Below are positions 3,553 through 47,409 of a stretch of DNA of 64,000 nucleotides, piece after piece. The DNA lies in assembly GCA_028688415.1 (NCBI GenBank), contig JAQTYF010000001.1, positions 577,895 through 641,894 on the forward strand, in the 5' to 3' direction. How positions within the stretch are numbered: position 1 is the stretch's first letter; each line of letters starts with the position of its first letter. Origin of the DNA: Candidatus Moraniibacteriota bacterium. GTDB taxonomy: Bacteria > Patescibacteriota > Minisyncoccia > Moranbacterales > UBA1568. Below the pieces are notes generated by a model, which saw only the letters and a program-made list of their open reading frames with translations, had not been told where the DNA came from and ran no database searches. The position numbers and the translations under genes were made by a program.

Positions 3553-3624
3553 TAGCCCTAAGGGGAATCGGACCCCTGTTACCAGGATGAGAACCTGGTG
3601 TCCTAACCATTAGACGATAGGGCC
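3553..3624 (-). tRNA. tRNA-Glu (anticodon CTC)
   Basis: Reverse complement GGCCCTATCGTCTAATGGTTAGGACACCAGGTTCTCATCCTGGTAACAGGGGTCCGATTCCCCTTAGGGCTA folds as a cloverleaf. Anticodon stem CCAGG/CCTGG, loop TTCTCAT. Closely resembles E. coli tRNA-Glu. T-loop reads TCCGATT, i.e. C at the usually invariant U55. Confidence 0.6.
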
Positions 3625-3666
3625 GTAAAGAAACTTTTCCATAATAACTATGGAAAACCTTCTTAG

Positions 3667-3737
3667 CAGGAGCGGTAGGAATCGAACCTACGCAAGCGGA
3701 TTTGGAGGCCGCTGTACTACCATTATACGACGCTCCC
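3667..3737 (-). tRNA. tRNA-Trp (anticodon CCA)
   Basis: Reverse complement GGGAGCGTCGTATAATGGTAGTACAGCGGCCTCCAAATCCGCTTGCGTAGGTTCGATTCCTACCGCTCCTG. Acceptor GGGAGCG/CGCTCCT, anticodon loop CTCCAAA, T-arm GTAGG-TTCGATT-CCTAC. Confidence 0.75.
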
Positions 3738-3844
3738 GTGCCTTTTTTCTGAAAATTCAACAAACAAAAAACAGTTAACCATTTAACAAAAAGCAGATAC
3801 TATCATTCTATCGTGCTTACTGTTTTTTGTTAACTGTTGCTTGA

Positions 3845-4006
3845 TTATTTGCTCTCAGCGTGAGGAGTGTTCTTCTTACAAAAACGACAATATTTCGAAA
3901 GAGCAAGCTTTTCTTTCACCTTTTTCTTATTGCGCTTGGTGTAATGTGTGATACGACTACACAGAGAACACTTCAGTTTTACCATGGTATCTTTTATCTG
4001 TCCCAT
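3845..4006 (-). CDS. rpmG: 50S ribosomal protein L33
   Basis: Manual translation MGQIKDTMVKLKCSLCSRITHYTKRNKKKVKEKLALSKYCRFCKKNTPHAESK (53 aa) carries the L33 Cys4 zinc ribbon. Below the 60-aa ORF-track cutoff. Sits between tRNA genes, the usual tRNA/rpmG context. Confidence 0.8.
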   Translation of the reverse strand: MGQIKDTMVKLKCSLCSRITHYTKRNKKKVKEKLALSKYCRFCKKNTPHAESK

Positions 4007-4348: not shown

Positions 4349-4735
4349 CTACGCGTCATTGAAGCATTGCCAGAACTCCTGGCGGGTCTTGACCGGCTTC
4401 ACGACTTCCGCGGAGTTGTGATCAAAGAGAAACAGAGCGAATGCATGATTCGGAAAACCCTGTCTCATCCAGTACTCGGCCGCTTCAGGAGATTTTTGCT
4501 GAAGCGCTTCGATTGCGTGCGTCTGGAGCACGATGTAGCCGGGGTAGTCCAGGACTTCAAGTCCCGTCTCCACATCATGCATCGTGTCACCTGCGTTTGA
4601 TGGCACTCCGTCGTGTGAAAACAGACACGGCACCTCGACCCCGATCCACTGCTCACGGATCTGGAGTGGTGCTCCCCCGCGTGGGACGGAAATGAAGCGG
4701 ATCGTCCCCAGATCTTCCATTTGAATTTGGCGCAT
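4349..4735 (-). CDS. Hypothetical protein in an approximately 55 % GC islet (possible acquired gene; start uncertain, ORF open to 4795)
   Basis: The ~450 bp of coding sequence is about 55 % GC against ~38 % around it. Chosen start MRQIQMEDLG has gagagg 8 nt upstream. Has its own terminator. No recognised domain. Confidence 0.45.
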   Translation of the reverse strand: MRQIQMEDLGTIRFISVPRGGAPLQIREQWIGVEVPCLFSHDGVPSNAGDTMHDVETGLEVLDYPGYIVLQTHAIEALQQKSPEAAEYWMRQGFPNHAFALFLFDHNSAEVVKPVKTRQEFWQCFNDA

Positions 4736-4881
4736 GAAAAAACCTCTCATTCCAGAACACATGCCAACACAGGCAAGATGTAATAAGATAATCACGAATA
4801 AGACTAAGAGTCAATGGTCCATTCGAATCCTATCCTAAATAACAAAAACGAGGATTTTTAACCCATCATTATATATTATGG

Positions 4882-5046
4882 GATTCAGTCACAAATATTT
4901 TTCTTGCCGTCGCACTTCTCGAAAGCCAAACAAATTTGAAGAGGGATTCCTCCTCCACCATCGCTGTGCCGGAGGCACCGCGACTCCTCCAGAGCCTGGG
5001 TTTTTCAAAAGCCAAGCATATTTAGATTCGGTCACAAATATTTTTC
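4882..5046. repeat. Pair of 22-bp direct repeats gattc(a/g)gtcacaaatatttttc (4882..4903 and 5025..5046) in the non-coding stretch between the GC-rich ORF and tRNA-Tyr
   Basis: 21 of 22 positions identical, 143 bp apart. Additional hairpins ggaggcaccgcgactcctcc and gaaagccaagtagttggctttc. The overlapping ORF 4878..5315(+) runs across tRNA-Tyr and is judged spurious. Confidence 0.5.
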
Positions 5047-5165
5047 CTGACGGAAAAATTTCGCGTCCCCGTCTCACGGTATTCGCCTTGCTCTGCGAGC
5101 AAACTCATACATCGTTCCGACTTTCTCATCCCTCTCGAAAGCCAAGTAGTTGGCTTTCTCCTGCC

Positions 5166-5204
5166 AAAAATAAAAAAACTTCCTTTCGGAAGTTATTTTA
5201 TTTT
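5166..5204 (-). terminator. Intrinsic (bidirectional-type) terminator after tRNA-Tyr
   Basis: aaaaaaacttcctttcggaagttattttatttt: stem aacttcc/ggaagtt, A-run upstream, T-run downstream. Confidence 0.6.
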
Positions 5205-5205
5205 G

Positions 5206-5288
5206 TGGGCAGGGAGGGATTCGAACCCCCGAAGGCCGAAGCCGACAGATTTACAGTCTGTTGTAATAGACCACTCTACCACCTACCC
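5206..5288 (-). tRNA. tRNA-Tyr (anticodon GTA), long variable arm
   Basis: Reverse complement GGGTAGGTGGTAGAGTGGTCTATTACAACAGACTGTAAATCTGTCGGCTTCGGCCTTCGGGGGTTCGAATCCCTCCCTGCCCA. Anticodon stem ACAGA/TCTGT, loop CTGTAAA. Class II variable arm. Confidence 0.8.
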
Positions 5289-5314
5289 ATACCATATCTC
5301 TTGTCCTTCTTTTG

Positions 5315-5387
5315 AGCCACCTGTCAGACTTGAACTGACGACCCACGGTTTACAAAACCGTCGCTCTACCAACTGAGCTAAGGTGGC
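5315..5387 (-). tRNA. tRNA-Thr (anticodon TGT)
   Basis: Reverse complement GCCACCTTAGCTCAGTTGGTAGAGCGACGGTTTTGTAAACCGTGGGTCGTCAGTTCAAGTCTGACAGGTGGCT. Anticodon stem ACGGT/ACCGT, loop TTTGTAA. Confidence 0.8.
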
Positions 5388-5445
5388 ATCTCCTCTCTAA
5401 AACTCTACTCTGTAATCACATTTTTCCCACTTCATCTACCAACCC

Positions 5446-5495
5446 CGCCTGCATCGCTATGCGAAGCATTGCGGGCAGGTAAGCTAAGGTGGCAT
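5446..5495. repeat. Imperfect GC-rich hairpin plus a 14-bp duplicate of the tRNA-Thr(TGT) 5' end
   Basis: Hairpin cctgc-at-cgc-t-atgc-gaa-gcat-t-gcg-g-gcagg at 5446..5484. agctaaggtggcat at 5482..5495 repeats 5376..5389 (first 14 nt of the tRNA plus flank). Confidence 0.4.
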
Positions 5496-5539
5496 TTCAT
5501 TATTCTACTTCTTTTTTTCTTCCGAGACAAGTATAGCTT

Positions 5540-6352
5540 CTATACTTCTTTCTGAAGGAGAATTTTTTCCAAACGACGAATCTTGATTTTTGCCATGCGT
5601 TGGACAGGACTCAGTCGGAGCACTTGTCGGTAGCATTCTTTAGCATCTTTGATATTACCAATCTCGAGATAATAATCCCCGAGTTCTTCATACGCACTGA
5701 AGTCTTTTGGATTCACAGCGATATGTGCAATCAGGGTTTCTTCTTGTGCGACACTGACAGATTTTTTCTTGACAGATATTCTCTCAGGACGAACCATTGC
5801 CTCACTCACCATTGGGCGAAGAGCATCTTGTTCTTGTTCCTGTTCTACTGGAGCACTCAGCTGTATGTCCTTCACAACATCTGATTGCACATCGAGAGAA
5901 ACTCTGGTATTTTCCTGTTTTTCAAAAATACGAAAACGTTCAACTCGAGATCGTCTAATCACTGGGATTTCCGTATCATTTGTCTCGATCGTATCCCCAC
6001 TACCATCGGATACTTCTTCTTGTACCGATATTGGTTTCTGAAAATGTTTCTGCTTTTCTTTCAGAGACTGCGTCATATCACTTAGTGTATTGTGCATTCG
6101 AAGAGACATCACTTTGAAGCGATAGGTCATTTTTTCTAATAGATGTAGAGAAAAATGTTTTGTTCGAGAAAAAGCAATCTGCTCTCCTGCGGTACTTTCT
6201 AACTGAGAAATTTTGTCCACTACTACAGGATCAACACCCTTTCGAGAAAGATACCACAATGCAAACAGTACACTCAGCACGATGACAATTGGAGGGACAA
6301 TGAGATACCACATGAGAATTGAAGGACGAGGAGACGAGTTAAAGATTTTCAA
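5540..6352 (-). CDS. Membrane-anchored protein with C-terminal TPR-like repeat
   Basis: N-terminal hydrophobic segment WYLIVPPIVIVLSVLFALWYL; C-terminal YEELGDYYLEIGNIKDAKECYRQVLRLSP is TPR-like. Confidence 0.5.
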   Translation of the reverse strand: MKIFNSSPRPSILMWYLIVPPIVIVLSVLFALWYLSRKGVDPVVVDKISQLESTAGEQIAFSRTKHFSLHLLEKMTYRFKVMSLRMHNTLSDMTQSLKEKQKHFQKPISVQEEVSDGSGDTIETNDTEIPVIRRSRVERFRIFEKQENTRVSLDVQSDVVKDIQLSAPVEQEQEQDALRPMVSEAMVRPERISVKKKSVSVAQEETLIAHIAVNPKDFSAYEELGDYYLEIGNIKDAKECYRQVLRLSPVQRMAKIKIRRLEKILLQKEV

Positions 6353-37359: not shown

Positions 37360-38637
37360 CTAGATCACACAATTTTCCACTGTCACTCTTTTGATCCGTG
37401 CTCCTATCTTTTGCAAGCGTTCCTCTATTCGTTCATATCCGCGATCGACTTGGTAAATATCTTCGATCACGGTCTTGCCTGACGCACAGAGCGCTGCGAT
37501 GATAAGCGCTGCACCTGCCCGCAAATCGAAACTCTTGATAAGTGTTCCTCGAAGAGGTGTCTTGCCATTGACGATTACCTGATGAGGATTGAGGACAGTT
37601 GCCCGAGCCCCCATCTTGATAAGTTCTGATACATAATTAAATCTTCCTTCAAAAATAGTATCGAAAAGAAGCGTGTCTCCGACTGCTTGCGAAGCAAGCA
37701 CTCCAAATGGAGCCTGGACATCAGTCGGGATACCTGGGTACGTTCTCGTATCGAGTTTGACAATCGCTTTCAATTTCTTCGCAGGAACAACAGTGATAGT
37801 ATTTTTTTCTATCACAAAATCAGCACCAAATTCTCGTAATTTTTCTAAAACAATATCAAGATGTTCTTCCCGGGCATTTTTGACAGTGATCGGACTTCCG
37901 GTAGCGACACCGAGAATAAGGAAGGTTCCCGCTTCATTGTGATCAGGAATAATCGTATGCTTTGCACCACGAAGCGTACCTGACCCAATAATCTCAAGTG
38001 TATGTGTACCAAGACCTTTGATCTTTGCTCCGAGAGCAATCAGGAATTTTCCCAAGTCTTCTACATGCGGTTCGGTTGCAGCAATCTTGATAATCGTTTT
38101 CCCTGGCATACTCGCAGCGAGCATCATCGCATTTTCAGTTGCAGTCACGGAAAATTCTTTGAGGATGATTTCAGCCGAATGTCGTTTGCTTGCATCGACA
38201 CGATACACTTTTCCATCGCTTTTGATATCAATACCCATTTTCTGTAGAGCGTCAAAATGTGTCCCTACTGGTCGAGCTCCGATAACACAGCCGCCAGGAT
38301 GATGGAAAGTAAATTTTGCAAAACGTGCTGACAGTGATCCAAGAAGGAGAATCGATGAACGGATTTTCTTCACGGCTTCGATATCTATTTTTGATGGATC
38401 GATATCTCGAGTAGTGATCGCCACCGTGCGCTTTCCTCGCCACTCTATCAGAGCACCCATACTCTCGAGAATCTCGATCATTCGAAAGACATCTTCGATC
38501 AGCGGAAGATTTGAGATGACGCAGGTTTCCTCGGTCAAGAGTGTTGCTGCAAGTATTGGTGTCGTTGCATTCTTGGATCCGCTCACAGTGATTTCTCCAC
38601 GCATTTTTTTCCCTCCCTCAATTTCAAAAAGTTCCAT
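37360..38637 (-). CDS. murA: UDP-N-acetylglucosamine 1-carboxyvinyltransferase
   Basis: N-terminal GEITVSGSKNATTPILAATLL; EPSP-synthase fold; 425 aa. Confidence 0.9.
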   Translation of the reverse strand: MELFEIEGGKKMRGEITVSGSKNATTPILAATLLTEETCVISNLPLIEDVFRMIEILESMGALIEWRGKRTVAITTRDIDPSKIDIEAVKKIRSSILLLGSLSARFAKFTFHHPGGCVIGARPVGTHFDALQKMGIDIKSDGKVYRVDASKRHSAEIILKEFSVTATENAMMLAASMPGKTIIKIAATEPHVEDLGKFLIALGAKIKGLGTHTLEIIGSGTLRGAKHTIIPDHNEAGTFLILGVATGSPITVKNAREEHLDIVLEKLREFGADFVIEKNTITVVPAKKLKAIVKLDTRTYPGIPTDVQAPFGVLASQAVGDTLLFDTIFEGRFNYVSELIKMGARATVLNPHQVIVNGKTPLRGTLIKSFDLRAGAALIIAALCASGKTVIEDIYQVDRGYERIEERLQKIGARIKRVTVENCVI

Positions 38638-39045
38638 AAACTCCGTTCAATAAAAAATAAATATCTCTCTGTGCTACGTTCTGGTTCTTATACACTTACA
38701 GAGTACATACCACATGAGTATAGCCCAAAAGAGCCTAAGAATCAATAAAGACCATATCAATACGAGGTATCGGTATGGTCTCTTATGCTTCTTTACTGAG
38801 AAGCGAAGGCAAAGGAATTTGCCTTATGTAAATACAAGAAAACATTGTTTGTTTTTCTTTTTGTTTTGATTTTGATTTTTAAAGAGCATTTTTCCTTTTT
38901 TTAGAGAAGAATCATCTTTTGAATGATTTTCTCTCCCAAAAAAAGAAAACGGGCACTTCCCGAAGGAAACACCCGTCTTAATTCACTACCTTACTAGTAT
39001 AGCACGCTTTTCCCCTTTTGTCAAAGGTTTTTTTTGGTTTACTTA

Positions 39046-39078
39046 GCGGTTGAACCGCTAAGTAAACCATTAGATAAA
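39046..39078. repeat. Perfect 14-bp-stem palindrome ggtttacttagcgg-ttgaa-ccgctaagtaaacc, downstream of the trxB stop
   Basis: T-run lies 5' of the hairpin on + and an A-run 3' of it on -, the reverse of a canonical terminator for either strand. Core resembles the motif at 48830..48854. Confidence 0.5.
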
Positions 39079-39090
39079 CAATCTGGAATA

Positions 39091-40011
39091 TTACCTCTGC
39101 TTCTTGATATATTCATACACAGCAAGAGCTGCGACGACACCGTCACCAGCAGAAATGTTATTTTGTTTGTAGGGAGCATCAGTAGCATCCCCAACTGCAA
39201 AGATTCCTACTTTCGATGTCGCTTTGGTTCGATGATCGAGGACGATTTCTCCTCGTTCATTGAGAGTGATAAGATCTTTGATAAATTCTGTATTCGGTAC
39301 CATTCCGATTTCCACGAAGACACCATCAGTTGACAGTGTTTTTTCTTCGCCAGTGAGAGCATCTTTGTAGAGGACGCCTGTGACGGCCGTTTCTCCGAGT
39401 ATCACTTGTGGTACAGCGTTATAGAGAGTATGTACTTTTTCATTCGTGAGAATTCTGTCTTGGGTCACGGCATCTCCACGAAGAACATCCGAACGAATCA
39501 TGAGGGTGATGGATGAAGCATATGGCAAGAGATCTTCTACTGCTTCGAGTCCAGCATTACCTCCTCCAACCACCACCACATTTTTATTACGGAAGAATGG
39601 TGCATCACAGGTCGAACAATACACGACACCCTTGCCATTGAATGTTTCTTCTCCAGGAATATCGAGATGACGATGTCGTCCGCCGGTAGCCACGATCACT
39701 GCTTTGGTCTCATGTTGTGTCCCATCAGAGAGTACAATAGTATAGCGTCCATCCTGTTCTGTCACAGCAGTTGCTTTCACTCCTGTCAAAATCTCGATCC
39801 CCTCTTGTGCACGGAGATGTCTCTCGAGTGACTGAGCGAATTCAAATCCAGGGATAGTCACCGTACCAATCCAATTTTCGATACTTGCAGAGACCGTCGA
39901 CTGACTGAGGAAATTTTCTGTCACAAAAAGCGTCTTCATTTGTTTGCGAGCAGAATATACTCCTGCAGCCACTCCACCCGGACCTCCACCGATGATGATC
40001 ACATCGTACAT
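39091..40011 (-). CDS. trxB: Thioredoxin-disulfide reductase
   Basis: MYDVIIIGGGPGG FAD motif; redox-active CSTCDAPFF; second GGGNAG NADPH motif. Start set at MYDV; the track ORF adds 21 aa. Confidence 0.85.
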   Translation of the reverse strand: MYDVIIIGGGPGGVAAGVYSARKQMKTLFVTENFLSQSTVSASIENWIGTVTIPGFEFAQSLERHLRAQEGIEILTGVKATAVTEQDGRYTIVLSDGTQHETKAVIVATGGRHRHLDIPGEETFNGKGVVYCSTCDAPFFRNKNVVVVGGGNAGLEAVEDLLPYASSITLMIRSDVLRGDAVTQDRILTNEKVHTLYNAVPQVILGETAVTGVLYKDALTGEEKTLSTDGVFVEIGMVPNTEFIKDLITLNERGEIVLDHRTKATSKVGIFAVGDATDAPYKQNNISAGDGVVAALAVYEYIKKQR

Positions 40012-40088
40012 ATTTTTTTTCTTATTGAAATTATTTTTGAAAAAAGAAAGGGTCTTGTATTTTTTCAAACACAAAACCCTCTTTTACA

Positions 40089-40898
40089 TCAGCCTCGATA
40101 ACCACCATCCACCAGAATATTCTGGCCCGTGATATACGATGCTCCAGATCCAAGGAGAAATACAACAACCGTCGCCACTTCACTCGGCTCTGCGAAATGT
40201 CCGAGCCAAATCTTGGCACATTCACTTTCATACTCACCGTCTGGCAAGGTATCATTCATACCCGTATTGATCCACCCTGGAGCAACACCGTTCACGCGGA
40301 TGCCATACTTGGCATAATGAGAGGCAAACCCGAGTATCTGCATCGCCATTGCCGCCTTGGACGAATCGTAATGCATCGAATACTCTGCCCACGAATTGAT
40401 ACCGTTCGTCGAAGTAATGAGAACAACAGCGCCTTTTACTTCTTTGGCTTTCATACGCTCGAGGACGGCACGAGTGGAAATAAATGATCCCATCACATTC
40501 ACCGCATAGACATCGTTCCAACCAGGGATTTTTTTTCTATCGGCATCAATACGTGTCTTGAGTGTTTGTTCTGTCAAATCAGTGTTCGGTGAAATACCAA
40601 TACTGTCGACTAACAGTGTAATTTCTTCTCCAAGTGTCGTCACAGATTCTTCGAGCATTTGCTCAAATGATGATTTTGTCTCATCGGTACGGTCCGAGAC
40701 CTGTGCAAGAAAGATGTCCGCACCAAGCGTTTTGAGTTCTTCGGCGACCGCTTCTGCTTTAGAACGATTACCGCTGTAGGTCAGCGTGAGCTTCTTCACA
40801 CCATGTACTACAAGTGCACGAGCAATCTCAGATCCGATACCACCACTGCCACCCAAGACGAGTGCGTGACCAGATACATTGAAAAGGTACTTATTCAT
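40089..40898 (-). CDS. Short-chain dehydrogenase/reductase (SDR) family oxidoreductase
   Basis: N-terminal LVLGGSGGIGSEIA Rossmann motif; YDSSK (YxxxK) catalytic motif. Confidence 0.75.
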   Translation of the reverse strand: MNKYLFNVSGHALVLGGSGGIGSEIARALVVHGVKKLTLTYSGNRSKAEAVAEELKTLGADIFLAQVSDRTDETKSSFEQMLEESVTTLGEEITLLVDSIGISPNTDLTEQTLKTRIDADRKKIPGWNDVYAVNVMGSFISTRAVLERMKAKEVKGAVVLITSTNGINSWAEYSMHYDSSKAAMAMQILGFASHYAKYGIRVNGVAPGWINTGMNDTLPDGEYESECAKIWLGHFAEPSEVATVVVFLLGSGASYITGQNILVDGGYRG

Positions 40899-40934
40899 AA
40901 ATTTCTCCTCTATTGGTTTAGATAAACAAAAGAA

Positions 40935-41183
40935 CTACTGCATTTTGAAAAGGGATTTCAGATATGCTTCGCTGATTTTTTTCTTGCCATCCCATTTGCA
41001 AGATATATCATCCTTGAGAAGCTCTACTCCGAGCATCGCCACCGCTTCGCGAATAGCGGTGATCTGCGTGATGACAGCGAGACAATCTTTTTCTTCTTCC
41101 ACCATACGACGTACGCCTTTCAATTGTCCTTCGATGCGCGCAATACGCGAGAGCACCGGCGATGTTTTCTTCGGAATCGTCAT
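40935..41183 (-). CDS. CsoR/RcnR/FrmR-family (DUF156) transcriptional repressor, two-Cys, no-His (CstR-like) variant
   Basis: LSRIARIEGQLKGVRRMVEEEKDCLAVITQITAIREAVAML fits the DUF156 helix bundle. Cys34 and Cys62 present, but residue 58 is Asp rather than the His of Cu-CsoR. Confidence 0.75.
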   Translation of the reverse strand: MTIPKKTSPVLSRIARIEGQLKGVRRMVEEEKDCLAVITQITAIREAVAMLGVELLKDDISCKWDGKKKISEAYLKSLFKMQ

Positions 41184-41202
41184 AATGATTGTTTCAGAAA
41201 AA

Positions 41203-41247
41203 TATACCCTACAGGGGTATATTATATCTTTTACGAAAATGTGTCAA
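41203..41247 (-). promoter_or_regulatory. CsoR-type operator TATACCCTACAGGGGTATA (41203..41221) overlapping a -35/-10 promoter of the csoR-SDR-trxB operon
   Basis: Palindrome 20 nt upstream of the csoR start, near-identical to the B. subtilis CsoR operator TACCCTACGGGGGTA. Minus-strand TATAAT at 41221..41226 and TTGACA at 41242..41247 with a 15-nt spacer. Confidence 0.6.
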
Positions 41248-41313
41248 CCCTGCGCATTCAATTCCATTCTAAAGCGCGACATTCAGACAGAATGAATGTT
41301 TTTTTTCAACGAA

Positions 41314-41470
41314 CAAAAGAATTTTTCATCATCCTTTCCACTCTGACTGAGCAAGAGCTCTCAGATCGAAAAAAGAAGCTAAGAGTGTGTTGATTGGAGG
41401 CTTCTTTTTTCGTTTTACTGAGAGCTCTTGTGAGAGGTGGAACGATGATGAAAAATTGGCTTTTGGTTGT
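41314..41470. repeat. Copy B of the ~155-bp palindromic MITE/ERIC-like element
   Basis: About 90 % identical to 238..392. Central hairpin cgaaaaaagaagc / gcttcttttttcg is perfect here. Lies between the csoR promoter and the stop of the giant surface-protein gene. Confidence 0.6.
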
Positions 41471-41509
41471 TGAAAAGAGAAAGCTTCATTTCAAGAGAGA
41501 CTGTAGTCC

Positions 41510-44500
41510 TTAAAACTTCGCCCATCCAAACATATCATTGAAGTTCCCGATAATCATCTGTACAACATTTTCAGTTTGTTGTGGAGTAATAATCATTTTT
41601 TCTCTTGAGATGCTTTCATTACCTGCTTTATCGATAGACTTGGCCTTGAGAAAATAGACAGAACCAATCTTGAATGATGTGAGCACTATCACGTGTGAAG
41701 TCGATGGATCGGTCGGCATATCAATCGTCTTTTCTTCTCCATTCGATCCTTCTTTGTAAGCAATGGAAGTGGTGGCTGGTTCATCAGTGTACCACGAAAC
41801 AATAGCCTGGACTTTGCCATCTTGAGCGAGAGCCATATCAGTTTTGAGTTGGTCAATTTCTGGAGCAGTGGTATCTTGACTCGTTGTGAAGTTTTTGGCA
41901 TCCTGAGTCACCTTGTTCCCTGCTTCATCTGTCGCAACGATCTTGGCATTGTACACCGACCCTGGTTTCAGTCCCTTGAGGACGACAGTGTGCGAGAGGG
42001 AAAGATCAGGCTTACCCTGAGACCCGGTATCAGAACTCTCCTTGGTATTCGTATAGGAGACGGATGCATCGGTCGGAACGCTCGTATTGAAACTCACTTC
42101 GACTTCCGTATCAGAAAGTACTTTGGTCGTGACATTACTAATTCCCGGAAGAGAACGGGGCGAGAATGTGTAATCAGAAGAAGCGAAAAGGTTGTTTAAT
42201 TTATCCTTACCTTTGACACGAAAATGATAAAGTTGATTGCTCTCGAGCTTGTTGACAGTCATTGTGTGCGTCTTCGTTTGGGTATTACTTTCTTGTTTGT
42301 CTCCGTACGTTTCTGAGAGACCGTATTCCACAATAGAAGACATAAGTGTACTCGTTTTCCAAGCGAGAACTGCTTCGCCGATTTTGTTCGAAACGATATT
42401 GATAGAAGAAATGGTCGAAGGAGAAGTAGTAGTGAAAGAGGATTCGGAGGAAGTAGTGAGATTGCCTCTCGCATCGGAAGAAAGGACGACAAAATAATAT
42501 TTGGTACTCGGGATGAGATTCTTGAGAAAAATCGTATGTTCGACAGCGTACGTCTCGATAGCTGAATTGATCACATCTTCTCCGGACATATCTCCATAAT
42601 CCGTCGTGATGCCGTACCTCACGTACCCATTACTGACCTCATCCGTACTCCATGTCACCGTTGCATTCTCTCCTGTCACATCTGACACATTCACACTCGA
42701 GATTGTCGGGGATATCAGATCACCCCCTTCGCTTCCGCTGTCTACCTGTATCGGTTTGGTCGTGAAACTCGCTTCATCAGAAACAACCACTGTGTCGAGA
42801 TTATCGATACAGGTTGCCTGGTAATAATAAATCGTCGAAAAGAGAAGTGATGGAAGCGTGATAGAGTGGCGCTTGTTTTCGAGAGTCTCAGTGACTGGAG
42901 TGGCTGCATAATTGCTCGGGGCAGTGCCGTACTCGATCGTACAGAGAGCAGGCTGGTCTGTAACAAGTGAGATGACGGCATTCGTATCAGTGATAAGTAC
43001 CGTATTCATCCCTGTGATACTCGTCAGTGGATCGTGCTGGAAACTCGGATCCGGAAGTGTCTTGAAAGAGTTTTGTGAGGAAAGTGTCGTATTTCCAGAA
43101 AGATCAGCAGAGTAGGCTTTGAAATAATAAGTAGTGTCAGCGACGAGAGAGGGAAGGATAACAAAATGATCCTGTCCATAAGTGACAGTTTCTGTAGTAC
43201 TGGTATACGGTCCTCCTCCAGTAGTAGCATATCGTATCTGACTCGTACTTTGTTCATCGGTGAGCCAAGTGATAGCTACTCGATCATACGTGATGACAGA
43301 AGCTCCGAGAGTGGAAATGACAGGACTTGTATTGTCCGTGGTAGTAGTGAATTGATAGAAAACGCCTCCATTGGTATCGAGAGCCATATTACTATCCGTA
43401 TCTTCTGATTTCACAAAGAAATAGTAAACCGTACCAGGTTGCAATCCTGATATTGTCTGAATATGACTCGTCGTGAGTGGAGTGGTACCGACTTCGGTAG
43501 GAGCGACGAGAGCAGTTTCTGATTTTTCTGTTGAGTAAGAAATATAAGTAGAGGCAGGAATATCCGTGTTCCAACCTATTGTTGCCTGAGTATTCGCGGC
43601 GCTCGAGAGAGCAACATTGGAAATAGCTGGACCTGGATTGGTAGTGAACGTATATCCTGTTCCCCCGTTATTATCAGTACCTTCGTTGCCTGCTGGATCA
43701 GAAGATTTGACCTGATAGAAATACGTTGTAGCAGGAGTGAGACCGGTAAGTACGACGCTATGGATACCACTTCCTCCAGTGTTATCCGCATAGTTGAACA
43801 CGCCGATTTCATCAGTGAAAAATCCACTGTTAACGGAAAAACCGACCGTCGAAGTAGAGAGTTCGTTGGTATCCCAAGTGATAGTGACTTGAGTTGTCGA
43901 AACTGCAGAATGAATAACATTGGAAATAGCAGGCGGAGTGGTCTCTGATCCCCCTCCTCCTTCTCCAGAATCTTGAGTACCATTTGGCTTTCCTTGAAGA
44001 GTCGACGACATCCAAGAAACGTTTCCGACGTTGTCTGTCATCTTGACCTTGTAGTAACGAATCGTGTCAAAAGTGACAGTCTCATCAATATAGTAATTAG
44101 TACTTCTGGAATTGATAGTAGCGACGAGAGAAAAATTGACATTGTCTCCTGACGCATAAAGTTTGTAATTGGCGAATCCATAAAAAGGTTCGGCAACCGT
44201 TCTCCAAGAGATGAAGAGTTTCCAATCATTATTCAGAGCATTCGACACATCTTGAATAATCATAAGAGTCGGAGTTTCTGTCGAAGTGACAGAGGAAATG
44301 ATTGTTTCATTGTTGTAGACATCTCGATACTGAACATAGACGATGTCTGGATTGGTAGCGAGTGTGAGGAGCTTCGTTCCATTATAGGCTTCGTAGGTGG
44401 ATCCAGAGAGATCAGAATTCAATCCAACTTTCATTTCAATCGTGGAATCATCAGTCGCAGAGAGAGTGACACTCGCTGGAGTGAGCGATGCATCAACCAA

Positions 44501-46927
44501 AACAGGATAGGATCCGAGCGTTGGCGCCTTGGAATCAAATGTGATGGTATCAGTCGCTGTGGCAGTATTGTTGGCAGCTTCATTGTCATTCACGGTCACT
44601 TTCACTGAAAGAGTCGTGCTATAGGTATTGGTAATATCAGTCTTCGCGTCCCAGATAGCTTCGTACTGTGTGTAGTTTGCAATATCGACACTCTTGTTAG
44701 CTGTGGCATTGATAGAAAGATTGGCACTATTGATGGTAACGAAACCAGACCCATTGTCATAGGCAAAGGAAGGAGTGATGTATCCAGGAGTGTTCGTTCC
44801 ATCGGTAGTATCGAAATCTTTCACTCGATAGATGATACGGATTTTTCCCCAGTCAGAATCGAGATTATCAGAAATCTGTGAGACTGCGAGACCATTAGTA
44901 TTGTAAGCAGTGTCAAATTCTGGAGCAGCATTCACCACATATTGTGATGTCACACTTGTGAGGATCGGGGTGATAGCACCGCCTGAGGTAAGAGTCACTC
45001 GGTATTGGAAATATTGATCATCCGATCCTGTCATGAGTGGATGCGTCGGAGAGAGTGTCACCCCATTGTCACTCTCGGTGAAATATGTAGATCCTGAACA
45101 ATCAGTGTATCCACACCAGGAAGCAGATGTGAGACCTCCGAGAGTAGACGCAGAACGCACTTGAAGTTTCACAGTATCACTGGCACTCGTATTTGTCGCT
45201 GTCCAACTCATTTTGGAGAGAAGATTGGCATTCGAGGAAGAGTCGTACGGAGAAGAAAGAATCTCTCCTGATGTGTACTGGGAGTAGTCGATGGTAACAG
45301 AGTCAAGAGTGGGTGAAACAGACGGATCAGTTGTCGAAAAATTCGCACGATACTGCATGTATTGATTGCCTGATAATGATGAGATGTCTCCACCATTCGC
45401 GACACCAGTTGTCCAGGAAGTCCACGAACCATCTGGCGTCGCAGTATTACCCGCCCGGACGTCCATCGTTATGGTTTGTCCGTTGAGTGTCGTAGCATAA
45501 CCAAAAGTGGAAAAGGAGGCAGACGCTCCGAGGTTAATAACGGCAGAAGTGAAAGTACCAGAAGCTACTTCGGGAAAACGATTATATTGAGATACAGTAA
45601 CATTACCATAATTAGTCACGTAGACCGATGTTCCATCAGGAGAAATCGTTATACCGATAGGACTTGCTCCTGCCGATATTGTTTCGGGGGTAAGTGGAGT
45701 AAGAATTCCAGTACTGGTATTTCTGTTGTATTGAGATACATTTGAGCTTGATAAATTGGCAGTGTAAGCCGATGCTCCAGACGAAGAGATAACAATACCA
45801 TACGGACTATTAGATGTATTTATAGTATCTACATATGTAAGCAAACCAGTACCTATATTTCTGTTATATTGAAAAATGCGTTGATAATCATAATTAGTTA
45901 CATAGACCGATGTTCCATCAGGAGAAATTGTAATACTATAGGAACCATTCATTGTGGATATCGTTGCAGGGGTAAGTTGAGTAAGGAGGCCAGTGCTGGT
46001 ATTTCTGCTGTATTGAGATACTTCATTATAATTATTTACATAAACTGACATCCCATCGGAAGAAATTATAACATTATTCGGTTGGATTCCTGTAGATATC
46101 GTTGCGGGGGTAAGCGGAGTGAGGAGGCCAGTGCTGGTATTTCTACTGTATTGAGATAATGTATTACTACCATAATTAGCCACATAGACTGATGTTCCAT
46201 CAGAAGAAATTGTGATACCACGAGGACTCGTTTCTGCCGATATTGTTGCGGGGGTAAGCGGAGTGAGGAGGCCAGTGCTGGTATTTCTGCTGTATTGAGA
46301 TACGGTAGTGTTACCAGAATTAGTTACATAAACTGATATTCCATCGGGAGAAATCGTAATACCGATAGGATTTGCTCCTGCCGATATTGTTGCGGGGGTA
46401 AGCGGAGTGAGGAGGCCAGTGCTGGTATTTCTGCTGTATTGAGATAATGTATTACTACCATAATTAGCCACATAGACTGATGTTCCATCAGAAGAAATTG
46501 TGATATCACGAGGCTGTGTTCCTGTAGGTCTCGTTGCGGGACTGAGTGCTGTAAGCAATCCACTCTTTACAAATTCTACTCTCGCTCCACTGCCGCTTCC
46601 CGTCACCTGTGTTATATTATTCGTTCCATTCCCAAATCCCCCACCTGTTGCCAGTCCTTGTGGTATCGTCGTCCCATCATCGGTGAAAGTATAACCGGTA
46701 GCAGGGAGTTTCACATCAGTCCCAACCGTCAGTCCACTCTGACTCGTATACTCATTCCAGTTCGTCTGATTGCCAGGATGCACGGCAGTATTCACCGTCA
46801 CTCCACCACTCCAGCTATTCTGGGTAAATGTATATGTCGCTCCCTGTGAACCGAGTGGCAAGAGATAGGTACCACTGACGATCACAATGACGAGCAAGGC
46901 CGATACCTGTGCTTTCCAGCTGCCCAT
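41510..46927 (-). CDS. Giant surface protein (~1,806 aa): signal/TM anchor, ~8-9 YVTN-type beta-propeller repeats, multiple fibronectin type III-like domains
   Basis: Start taken at MGSWKAQVSALLVIVIVSGTYLL; the preceding 124 track codons are AT-rich, K/R-rich leader. Repeats SQYSRNTSTGLLTPLTPATISAGANPIGITISPDGTSVYVTN. FN3-like AISNVIHSAVSTTQVTITWDTNELSTSTV and similar. Confidence 0.75.
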   Translation of the reverse strand: MGSWKAQVSALLVIVIVSGTYLLPLGSQGATYTFTQNSWSGGVTVNTAVHPGNQTNWNEYTSQSGLTVGTDVKLPATGYTFTDDGTTIPQGLATGGGFGNGTNNITQVTGSGSGARVEFVKSGLLTALSPATRPTGTQPRDITISSDGTSVYVANYGSNTLSQYSRNTSTGLLTPLTPATISAGANPIGITISPDGISVYVTNSGNTTVSQYSRNTSTGLLTPLTPATISAETSPRGITISSDGTSVYVANYGSNTLSQYSRNTSTGLLTPLTPATISTGIQPNNVIISSDGMSVYVNNYNEVSQYSRNTSTGLLTQLTPATISTMNGSYSITISPDGTSVYVTNYDYQRIFQYNRNIGTGLLTYVDTINTSNSPYGIVISSSGASAYTANLSSSNVSQYNRNTSTGILTPLTPETISAGASPIGITISPDGTSVYVTNYGNVTVSQYNRFPEVASGTFTSAVINLGASASFSTFGYATTLNGQTITMDVRAGNTATPDGSWTSWTTGVANGGDISSLSGNQYMQYRANFSTTDPSVSPTLDSVTIDYSQYTSGEILSSPYDSSSNANLLSKMSWTATNTSASDTVKLQVRSASTLGGLTSASWCGYTDCSGSTYFTESDNGVTLSPTHPLMTGSDDQYFQYRVTLTSGGAITPILTSVTSQYVVNAAPEFDTAYNTNGLAVSQISDNLDSDWGKIRIIYRVKDFDTTDGTNTPGYITPSFAYDNGSGFVTINSANLSINATANKSVDIANYTQYEAIWDAKTDITNTYSTTLSVKVTVNDNEAANNTATATDTITFDSKAPTLGSYPVLVDASLTPASVTLSATDDSTIEMKVGLNSDLSGSTYEAYNGTKLLTLATNPDIVYVQYRDVYNNETIISSVTSTETPTLMIIQDVSNALNNDWKLFISWRTVAEPFYGFANYKLYASGDNVNFSLVATINSRSTNYYIDETVTFDTIRYYKVKMTDNVGNVSWMSSTLQGKPNGTQDSGEGGGGSETTPPAISNVIHSAVSTTQVTITWDTNELSTSTVGFSVNSGFFTDEIGVFNYADNTGGSGIHSVVLTGLTPATTYFYQVKSSDPAGNEGTDNNGGTGYTFTTNPGPAISNVALSSAANTQATIGWNTDIPASTYISYSTEKSETALVAPTEVGTTPLTTSHIQTISGLQPGTVYYFFVKSEDTDSNMALDTNGGVFYQFTTTTDNTSPVISTLGASVITYDRVAITWLTDEQSTSQIRYATTGGGPYTSTTETVTYGQDHFVILPSLVADTTYYFKAYSADLSGNTTLSSQNSFKTLPDPSFQHDPLTSITGMNTVLITDTNAVISLVTDQPALCTIEYGTAPSNYAATPVTETLENKRHSITLPSLLFSTIYYYQATCIDNLDTVVVSDEASFTTKPIQVDSGSEGGDLISPTISSVNVSDVTGENATVTWSTDEVSNGYVRYGITTDYGDMSGEDVINSAIETYAVEHTIFLKNLIPSTKYYFVVLSSDARGNLTTSSESSFTTTSPSTISSINIVSNKIGEAVLAWKTSTLMSSIVEYGLSETYGDKQESNTQTKTHTMTVNKLESNQLYHFRVKGKDKLNNLFASSDYTFSPRSLPGISNVTTKVLSDTEVEVSFNTSVPTDASVSYTNTKESSDTGSQGKPDLSLSHTVVLKGLKPGSVYNAKIVATDEAGNKVTQDAKNFTTSQDTTAPEIDQLKTDMALAQDGKVQAIVSWYTDEPATTSIAYKEGSNGEEKTIDMPTDPSTSHVIVLTSFKIGSVYFLKAKSIDKAGNESISREKMIITPQQTENVVQMIIGNFNDMFGWAKF
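45500..46540. repeat. Near-identical ~140-bp tandem DNA repeats encoding the YVTN blades inside the giant gene
   Basis: cgttgcgggggtaagcggagtgaggaggccagtgctggtatttct(g/a)ctgtattgagata recurs near 46103, 46240 and 46383; a further ~60-bp exact duplicate lies at 46158..46217 and 46447..46505. Confidence 0.6.
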
Positions 46928-47409
46928 CAATACTTGTCCTACTTCTTTAATTGATTTGGAAGCAAGGCTTCCAAAAGATGGAAACAAGCTTCCAAATCTC
47001 CTCTGTTTCTTATGCGATATGACATCAGAAAGTACTCTCTTCTTTTTCTTGGAGAGGAGAGCGACAAAAAAACCAGTTGTTTTTTTTATTGTTTCTAGGA
47101 GTACTACGAAGAAATTTTTCTTCCATTCCGAAAAATGACGTCTGAAGAAAGTGCTTCTTTTTCTCTGCATTCTCTGCGGTGCAACACTATCAAAACACCC
47201 TTTCTTTCTCTGAATGAGGGTTTGATATGGTTTTCTTTTTTCTTCTACAAAAGACACTCTTCGCATAGTGTTTCTTTTTGTTTCTTCGCGCTCAAACATG
47301 GGTGTTCAAAAAAGAAACATCCATTGAAAGTATACCATAGAAATCTTCTTTTTGAAGAGAAAAAAGCCGTCTCTCGAAAAGAGATAACGGCTTATAGGAA
47401 AAATGAGGG

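Follow-up and report, generated by a model that had tools for sequence, protein, structure and literature searches.

Introduction

The CsoR family serves as a model of specificity evolving on a single small scaffold, with Cu, Ni/Co, formaldehyde or persulfide as the signals, its members being told apart by the residues at the sensor positions W, X, Y and Z. The thiol-based member CstR, described from Staphylococcus aureus, Enterococcus faecalis, Streptococcus pneumoniae and Streptococcus mitis (PMC8643695), lacks a His at Y and has its two Cys on opposite subunits; once crosslinked by disulfides it no longer binds DNA, and in vitro it reacts fast with H2O2 (PMC8643695). In the sequence similarity network of the family, CstRs form clusters 4 and 10, which carry an Asn 'wedge' at Y and are defined by sulfur-detoxification gene neighbourhoods; clusters 6-9 are left uncharacterised, and the main text describes no thioredoxin-linked cluster (PMC8643695). 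According to a 2024 review, no H2O2-specific CsoR-family sensor has been characterised, a gap that keeps oxidant specificities from being compared directly on the one scaffold (PMC11672702). Here we analyze a 64-kb stretch of a Candidatus Moranbacteria (Patescibacteria) genome (the window), on the minus strand of which an 82-residue CsoR-family repressor is encoded under a family-type operator, ahead of a short-chain dehydrogenase/reductase (SDR) and a thioredoxin reductase (TrxR)-like enzyme. Comparison with related loci from some 80 species indicates that the repressor is likely to be a thiol-oxidation sensor of a type not yet described for the CsoR family.

Control of a thioredoxin system by a Cys-based sensor has precedents outside the family. 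OxyR (trxC, grxA), Spx (trxA, trxB) and RsrA-SigR (trxBA) all preside over a thioredoxin system that can reset the sensor, and RexT of Nostoc, a member of the ArsR family, senses H2O2 and raises thioredoxin expression (PMC8960804). These regulators differ from the present one in having unrelated folds and DNA-binding modes, and none belongs to the CsoR family. Our full-text literature searches retrieved no paper on CsoR-family regulation of trx genes or on the CsoR family in Patescibacteria. What is known, then, is the scaffold and its operator; what is new is the sensor-site pattern, the regulon and the lineage.

The repressor belongs to the CsoR family but carries an altered sensor site

The repressor gene (41183-40935, minus strand) encodes a protein that matches PF02583 (DUF156) with 66.9 bits (E=2e-18; cut-off 22.8 bits). 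Its sequence matches in the PDB at E<0.01 are all CsoR, FrmR, InrS or CstR, the best being Cu(I)-CsoR structures (4m1p at 1e-9, 4adz). A protein of identical sequence is encoded in a Candidatus Moranbacteria metagenome-assembled genome. An AlphaFold (AF2) model of the protein (predicted local distance difference test score, pLDDT, 83) consists of three helices spanning residues 7-29, 34-57 and 72-78, the second of which opens with C34 at the superfamily position of the X Cys; the top 20 matches of this model in a Foldseek search of the PDB are all CsoR-family structures. The repressor is a member of the CsoR/RcnR superfamily, and an earlier note on this DNA, made from the sequence, had correctly recognized both the DUF156 family and the two cysteines, Cys34 and Cys62.

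The register of the sensor site was set by ungapped alignments to Streptomyces lividans CsoR and Escherichia coli FrmR, which place C34 on the X Cys, D59 (not D58) on the Y His and K63 on the Z position. Because K63 occupies the family Z position, the second Cys of the clade (C62) stands at X+28 and not at X+29. The earlier note had counted to D58 in claiming an Asp in place of the metal-ligand His; both residues being Asp, that claim holds. Across 79 species-level loci, the X Cys is invariant and Y is held by Asp (76 loci) or Glu (3), never by His. The second Cys lies at X+28 in 77 loci and at X+27 in two, never at X+29, and is followed by Lys or Arg in 76/79. The residue before the X Cys is acidic (Asp or Glu) in 69/79 and otherwise Gln, Gly or Ala, never Tyr, while Asn occurs at X+24 only, in 19/79. 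W64 is invariant in the alignment of close relatives, and D58, D59, C62 and W64 all fall in the loop that follows helix 2 of the AF2 model. The clade further shares a C-terminal motif, C-K-W-D-G-K-K ... LFKMQ. A profile search of 1.84 billion representatives returned 6441 superfamily members, of which only ~25 clusters combined this site with the ...LFK ending, most of the neighbouring matches being canonical Tyr-Cys...His(+25)...Cys(+29) proteins. Judged from these alignments, the Cys...Asp...Cys(X+28)-Lys-Trp site would be a pattern new for the CsoR family.

We then compared this site with those of the characterised classes. Cu(I)-sensing CsoR (x-C-H-C), as known from Mycobacterium tuberculosis, Bacillus subtilis, S. 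lividans and Geobacillus thermodenitrificans, resembles the present repressor in operator type and in being autoregulated through an operator that covers the promoter. It differs in its His at X+25 and Cys at X+29, both absent in 79/79 members of the clade (which has Asp for the His and a displaced Z Cys), in its copA/copZ neighbours, and in the second-shell Tyr before the X Cys (Y35 of M. tuberculosis CsoR), which nearly all canonical C-H-C relatives have and the clade never does. Assignment to RcnR or InrS (H-C-H-H or H-C-H-C; Ni/Co) was rejected for want of a conserved N-terminal His (W position) in the clade alignment and of any His at Y. FrmR (P-C-H-x; formaldehyde) was rejected likewise: Pro2, which forms the methylene bridge with the X Cys, is present in 3/36 aligned members, the N-termini differing in sequence and in length by up to 15 residues, and Y is Asp. 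Cu, FrmR-type aldehyde and RcnR/InrS-type Ni/Co sensing were thus set aside because their defining residues are absent, and the lack of a conserved Pro2 speaks against the aldehyde regulon that the earlier note had offered as an option.

The Cys pair itself agrees with that of CstR only in part: there are two invariant Cys and no His, but the second Cys stands one residue before Z. The two proteins share the fold family, a pair of Cys (in the present repressor presumed to lie on opposite subunits), the absence of His at Y, the acidic residue before the X Cys and a near-identical operator, and release of DNA through inter-subunit Cys-Cys bridging, the mechanism of CstR, is also the one that we infer for the present repressor. 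They differ in four respects. CstR has its Asn wedge at Y where the present clade has an invariant Asp/Glu; its second Cys is at X+29 rather than at X+28 within the distinct C-terminal motif; its cargo comprises rhodaneses, persulfide dioxygenase, sulfide:quinone oxidoreductase (SQR) and CoA-persulfide reductase as opposed to the TrxR, thioredoxin (TrxA) and NAD(P)-dehydrogenase genes of the clade; and its hosts are Firmicutes and Actinobacteria, not Patescibacteria. In the source genome, no gene for a rhodanese, persulfide dioxygenase, SQR or CoA-persulfide reductase lies within 10 kb on either side of the repressor gene. The clade departs from CstR in lacking both the wedge and a cst-type sulfur regulon. 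The earlier note's comparison with CstR thus stands for the general dithiol logic but not for the Y residue, the spacing of the second Cys or the associated genes.

One of the related loci (L063:3021-4365) contains a second, canonical x-C-H-C CsoR gene 120 nt past the thioredoxin operon, 3 kb from the repressor gene of the clade. It is followed by genes for a membrane-anchored DsbA-like protein and a small SHOCT-like membrane protein, with no copper ATPase.

A single family-type operator covers the repressor promoter

The operator TATACCCTACAGGGGTATA (TATACCC-N5-GGGTATA; 41203-41221) is a perfect 7+5+7 inverted repeat. Consisting of G/C tracts with AT flanks placed over the gene's own promoter, it has the form that characterizes CsoR/RcnR-superfamily operators. 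It agrees with the S. mitis cst operator used in CstR binding assays, ATATACCC-N4-GGGGTATAT, at all positions save 4 central bases, the half-sites being identical (PMC8643695), and was rightly called canonical for the family in the earlier note. A promoter scan placed a -35 hexamer TTGACA at 41247-41242 and, after a 17-nt spacer, a -10 hexamer TAATAT at 41224-41219 (both minus strand), the last 3 nt of the latter being the first 3 nt of the operator. The operator spans -10 to ~+12, with the transcription start expected near 41212. The previously proposed overlap of the operator with a TTGACA/TATAAT promoter therefore stands as regards the -10 box but not as regards its sequence: the hexamer at the 17-nt spacing is TAATAT, and the alternative TATAAT, although present, lies 15 nt from the -35. 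Because the operator overlaps the -10 box, autoregulation, which the earlier note had also suggested, is the natural reading.

This layout has been kept in the 80 related loci described in the next section. With an operator called when at least 12 of 14 positions matched, 76/80 loci had one, in 69 of them no more than 200 nt upstream of the repressor gene. Alignment of these 76 loci on the operator revealed the same TTGAC-17-TAATAT-operator arrangement, with TTGAC at a fixed distance, the -10 consensus TAATATACCCC and the operator overlapping -10/+1. The further operator copies sought after the earlier note were not found: the window holds a single exact copy and no good second one nearby, and the 3 sites with up to 3 mismatches in 64 kb (0.53 expected by chance) include, besides the operator itself, two that are compatible with chance. 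In 555 kb of related loci, there were ~7 other operator sites and no second operator ahead of trxA, trxB or the glutamate dehydrogenase (GDH) gene. As the 64 kb hold no further good copy and the 555 kb of related loci no second operator ahead of trxA, trxB or the GDH gene, the regulon probably consists of a single operon per genome region.

Locus L048 has two operator-like sites 26 nt apart (2373-2417), 1.6 kb upstream of its repressor gene. They precede an unannotated 145-aa open reading frame and a shikimate-dehydrogenase-like gene, both of which, from this arrangement, may belong to the regulon as well.

Thioredoxin-system genes are the conserved partners of the repressor

A scan with one genome per species yielded the 80 related loci, all of them from Patescibacteria or syntenic with patescibacterial loci, with Moranbacteria, Wolfebacteria, Uhrbacteria, Falkowbacteria and the Parcubacteria group represented. 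In the 76 with downstream sequence, the downstream genes are all on the same strand as the repressor gene and include a TrxR gene in 68; the others have TrxA or GDH genes, with the exception of L069. The most frequent order is repressor-GDH-TrxB1 (24 loci), ahead of repressor-SDR-TrxB1, the order of the window (15 loci, plus two truncated ones), and of repressor-TrxB1 with no gene in between (11 loci). TrxA followed by TrxB2, a TrxB1 paralog, accounts for 8 loci and permutations of TrxA, GDH and TrxB2 for another 8; the repressor gene is followed by TrxA only (3), TrxB2 only (2) or GDH only (2) in 7 loci, and by neither a thioredoxin-system gene nor GDH, though sequence is present, in the single locus L069. 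GDH was identified through NF040817 (1e-154). Four more distant relatives with an acidic Y residue, retrieved by the representative search (P0149, P0152, P0154 and P0173), each have a WCGPC thioredoxin gene directly downstream, under an operator of a diverged, TATACT type. What stays with repressor and operator across Patescibacteria is thus the thioredoxin system, i.e., TrxR with or without TrxA, which strengthens the thiol/redox regulon that the earlier note had proposed.

A Pfam census of the 139 flanking proteins of these loci returned MurD, MurA, UppP, methyltransferases and malic enzyme. It found no CopA/HMA, rhodanese, ETHE1, SQR, RcnA, FrmA or other cop, cst, rcn or frm gene product among the 139, nor any TauE-type protein, CoA-persulfide reductase or FrmB-type protein. 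The only ATPase motif met in the related loci is on the opposite strand of L073. The earlier note had pointed out that no copper ATPase lies downstream, and neither the window nor the 139 flanking proteins includes one.

The gene between repressor and trxB varies. On a TrxB1 tree, loci with GDH, SDR or an empty slot are interspersed, from which it follows that the slot gene was swapped repeatedly; L012 (GDH) and L013 (SDR), for example, have nearly identical TrxB1. The SDR, which the earlier note had placed in the operon, is one of several interchangeable occupants (GDH, SDR or nothing) and not the conserved partner. Beyond these, malic enzyme is encoded in three loci (L068, L070 and L073) and the shikimate-dehydrogenase-like gene of L048 lies behind the two extra operator-like sites. 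Since the other slot occupants and neighbours are NAD(P)-dependent dehydrogenases, the slot gene may act as a supplier of reducing equivalents.

Several loci merit a separate description. In the pairs L012/L013 and L004/L016, repressor and TrxB1 are near-identical while one member has GDH and the other an SDR gene with a terminator, an arrangement that indicates, at the sequence level, recent cassette-like replacement. L066 encodes a thioredoxin-TrxR fusion of 430 aa (4598-5890) downstream of the repressor gene and trxA, and has a DUF302 gene (3555-3992) between operator and repressor gene. L069 (2920-5994) consists of the operator followed by genes for a YgaP-like transmembrane (DUF2892) membrane protein, the repressor, a 419-aa protein and an RNHCP-domain protein. 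Many of the metagenome-assembled genomes among L003-L079 are titled 'uncultured Bdellovibrionales' or 'uncultured Gammaproteobacteria'; their loci are syntenic with those of Moranbacteria and their repressors 85-94% identical, and these labels look like placeholders or misassignments.

A terminator-like hairpin separates the SDR gene from trxB

In the window, the repressor gene is followed after 36 nt by the SDR gene (40898-40089, minus strand), the spacer including an AGAGGAG ribosome-binding site, and the two genes, by this anatomy, clearly form one transcription unit. The 269-aa product is a classical SDR oxidoreductase (adh_short_C2, E=8e-42) whose NCBIfam matches (FabG, glucose 1-dehydrogenase and others) are all below cut-offs and whose nearest solved structures are generic FabG or glucose 1-dehydrogenase types. 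Between it and trxB lies an intrinsic-terminator-like element, a hairpin of 16 bp with its U-run (40082-40037, minus strand; -20.9 kcal/mol, z=-4.97). All 16 SDR-type loci whose sequence extends to trxB have a strong hairpin with a T-rich run at this place. Loci in which trxB comes straight after GDH or the repressor gene usually have a spacer of 9-50 nt there and no hairpin. The promoter scan detected no sigma-70-like promoter for trxB on the minus strand from 40089 to 40011, where inspection by eye revealed only an AATAAT without a -35. Because of the hairpin between SDR and trxB, co-transcription with the repressor gene, claimed for both genes in the earlier note, is safe for the SDR gene and doubtful for trxB. 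Expression of trxB in the window would call either for read-through of the hairpin or for a signal not visible in the sequence.

The trxB gene (40011-39091, minus strand; ATG at 40011, a start fixed from homologs and the NCBI gene call) encodes a 306-aa TrxR-family flavoprotein (Pyr_redox_2, E=3e-40). It scores 306.9 bits against TIGR03140 (AhpF) over model positions 212-512 and 271.9 bits against TIGR01292 (TRX_reduct), the equivalog cut-off of which is 343, and matches AhpF of PDB entry 1hyu at 1e-61. Its redox motif is CSTC, it shares the PYKQ motif of AhpF, and it has IRSDVLRG in place of the IYRGEKLRC of the TrxB2 paralog, in what we take to be the region of the classical HRRDxFRA NADPH motif. 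The predicted enzyme is a low-Mr member of the TrxR family that is nearer to the C-terminal half of AhpF than to canonical TrxB. That TrxR-like half of AhpF gives its best alignment, and neither protein carries an HRRD-type NADPH-motif sequence; AhpF differs in having an N-terminal double-thioredoxin domain, which the window reductase lacks. Truncated AhpF-like or NADH-dependent TrxR-like reductases are known, e.g., Cp34 of Clostridium pasteurianum. No peroxiredoxin or glutaredoxin partner for the reductase is encoded in the 64-kb window.

The AhpF-like features (CSTC, PYKQ and IRSDVLRG) recur in TrxB1 of the Moranbacteria loci (L001-L060), and in more distant Patescibacteria the same operon position is held by the paralog TrxB2 (CATC, ~35% identical to TrxB1).

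Neighbouring features of the window

Apart from the genes described above, the window contains no P-type ATPase motif, trxA, GDH gene or second CsoR-family gene, and none of its genes encodes an HMA motif or a DKTGT ATPase. An Rfam scan of 38500-41600 gave sub-threshold chance matches only.

A very long imperfect hairpin (41300-41460, minus strand; -62.3 kcal/mol, z=-8.7) lies between the stop codon of an upstream 1929-aa gene and the repressor promoter. Unusually large, it is probably a terminator or insulator, and since so stable a hairpin follows the stop of the upstream gene, the repressor promoter looks like a true start of a transcription unit. The 1929-aa gene itself (41510-47299, minus strand) encodes lactonase-type beta-propeller repeats (reiterated SQYSRNTSTGLLTPLTPATIS units) and many FN3 and Pur_ac_phosph_N domains. 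It sits between murD and the repressor gene and looks like an insertion, because murD is directly upstream in most related Moranbacteria (47/71 upstream neighbours).

On the other side, between the trxB stop and murA (38936-39024, minus strand), there is a near-consensus promoter, TTGACA-17-TATACT with a TG extension (11/12 matches), and, starting ~15 nt past its -10, a GC hairpin with a U-run (38979-38946, -19.8 kcal/mol). The promoter and hairpin would produce a transcript of only ~50 nt or form a leader or attenuator ~300 nt before murA; the element matched no Rfam family.

Discussion

In our interpretation, the repressor is probably an autoregulated dithiol switch over the thioredoxin system, CstR-like in mechanism without being a CstR. 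This reading draws on gene anatomy, family membership, gene linkage and the conservation of operator, promoter and residues; from these we infer the inducer, a Cys-Cys bridge, the feedback loop, read-through into trxB and the supply of NAD(P)H by the slot gene. The reduced dithiol repressor, presumably a tetramer as elsewhere in the family, would sit on the single TATACCC-N5-GGGTATA operator and block its own transcription, the operator covering both the -10 box and the transcription start. Thiol-oxidising stress, whether peroxide, disulfide stress or sulfane sulfur, would attack Cys34 at the N-terminus of helix 2, which could then pair with the other subunit's Cys62 in a disulfide or polysulfide bridge between the subunits. 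By analogy with CstR, for which this was shown experimentally, the Cys34-Cys62' bridge may be expected to abolish DNA binding, and derepression would yield more repressor and SDR plus, by read-through of the hairpin, the TrxR-like enzyme. The restored thioredoxin system would re-reduce the sensor and so close a feedback loop, with the exchangeable NAD(P)-dependent dehydrogenase (GDH, SDR, malic enzyme or the shikimate-dehydrogenase-like enzyme) supplying reducing equivalents. General thiol oxidation is favoured over sulfane sulfur as the inducer because sulfur-detoxification genes are never linked to the repressor.

Several observations weigh against this interpretation. The terminator-like hairpin between SDR and trxB in 16/16 SDR-type loci, together with the failure to find a trxB promoter, means that the window repressor may control mainly itself and the SDR. 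Part of the linkage among Moranbacteria is shared synteny (murD ... murA), and it is the rearranged and more distant loci that provide independent support. The inducer is read only from cargo genes and residues. The second Cys is off the family Z position and, in the AF2 model, within a low-confidence loop (pLDDT ~62-80). Finally, the invariant carboxylate beside the thiols is no less compatible with a role as metal or cluster ligand than with a pure dithiol switch, and the invariant Asp, like Trp64, would allow for a site assisted by a metal or a cluster.

Of the alternatives, the best placed is that the repressor is a true functional CstR, in which organic persulfides bridge the Cys pair as a di-, tri- or tetrasulfide and the thioredoxin system serves as a protein-persulfide reductase rather than as a general antioxidant. 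The x-C-x-C pattern with Asp/Glu before the X Cys, as in the 'KDC' or 'RDC' of CstR, would suit such a role, and many Patescibacteria inhabit sulfidic or anoxic groundwater. The half-sites shared with the S. mitis cst operator point the same way, and thioredoxin-like proteins of S. aureus are reported to reduce protein persulfides (PMC6196236). We nevertheless regard it as unlikely, given that a rhodanese, persulfide dioxygenase, SQR, CoA-persulfide reductase or TauE-type gene was found neither among the 139 flanking proteins nor in the window, and that the site has Asp at Y with no Asn wedge and its second Cys at X+28 instead of X+29.

Less probable still is a metal or cluster sensor, in which Cys34, Asp58/Asp59 and Cys62' would form a Cys2-carboxylate site for Zn(II), Fe(II), Ni(II), another thiophilic metal or an Fe-S cluster, the signal being either metal occupancy or the redox lability of the metal or cluster (cf. 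the Zn of RsrA and the clusters of NsrR and RsrR). Most characterised family members do sense metals at exactly these positions, the conservation of Asp/Glu at Y in 79/79 is stronger than a spacer residue needs, and the invariance of Trp64 and Lys63, next to Cys62, suggests that the site is structured. On the other hand, none of the 80 loci has a linked metal transporter, chaperone or storage gene, the thioredoxin-system cargo points to thiol redox and not to metal homeostasis, and the residues typical of Ni/Co sensors (a conserved N-terminal His at W) and of Cu sensors (His, Tyr) are missing.

An electrophile or aldehyde sensor, released from DNA when aldehydes or quinones S-alkylate its Cys, with the SDR as a detoxifying carbonyl reductase, would account for the SDR gene, which has no specific substrate assignment, being the one most securely co-transcribed with the window repressor, and FrmR is among the nearest solved relatives. 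We consider it very unlikely: the SDR occupies the slot in only 15-17/80 loci and alternates with GDH or nothing among near-identical relatives, no FrmA- or FrmB-type genes are nearby, and the variable N-termini do not conserve the Pro2 of FrmR. That the repressor is an ordinary Cu(I)-CsoR with its exporter elsewhere in the genome and its redox neighbours a matter of inherited synteny is scarcely credible, for although some members are publicly annotated as 'CsoR family ... copper-sensing', the operator is of the CsoR type and the exporter scan covered 64 kb of the genome only, this reading is largely refuted by the residues (no His ligand in 79/79, a displaced second Cys, no Tyr before the X Cys), one locus (L063) has a separate canonical x-C-H-C CsoR 3 kb away, and the thioredoxin linkage survives gene-order changes and extends to distant lineages.

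Returning to the dithiol switch, we raise tentatively a wider possibility: that the clade could represent the founding general thiol-oxidation (peroxide/disulfide) sensor of the CsoR family and, throughout Patescibacteria, the chief regulator of the thioredoxin system, with a new type of site, possibly metal- or cluster-assisted, and with the slot gene as a plug-in NAD(P)H module. The repeated GDH/SDR swaps in a single operon slot are, in themselves, a tidy example of modular operon evolution. With respect to the family, this thioredoxin-linked clade of ~80 species is an obvious candidate for the missing H2O2-specific member, and its altered sensor site, with Asp at Y and a shifted Cys, is directly testable in vitro given a protein of 82 aa and an operator of 19 bp. 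Patescibacteria are mostly uncultured and have very few transcription factors. If our interpretation is true, the present repressor, operator and regulon would be among the first such sets predicted for them and would suggest a route by which their main thiol-reducing system is controlled.

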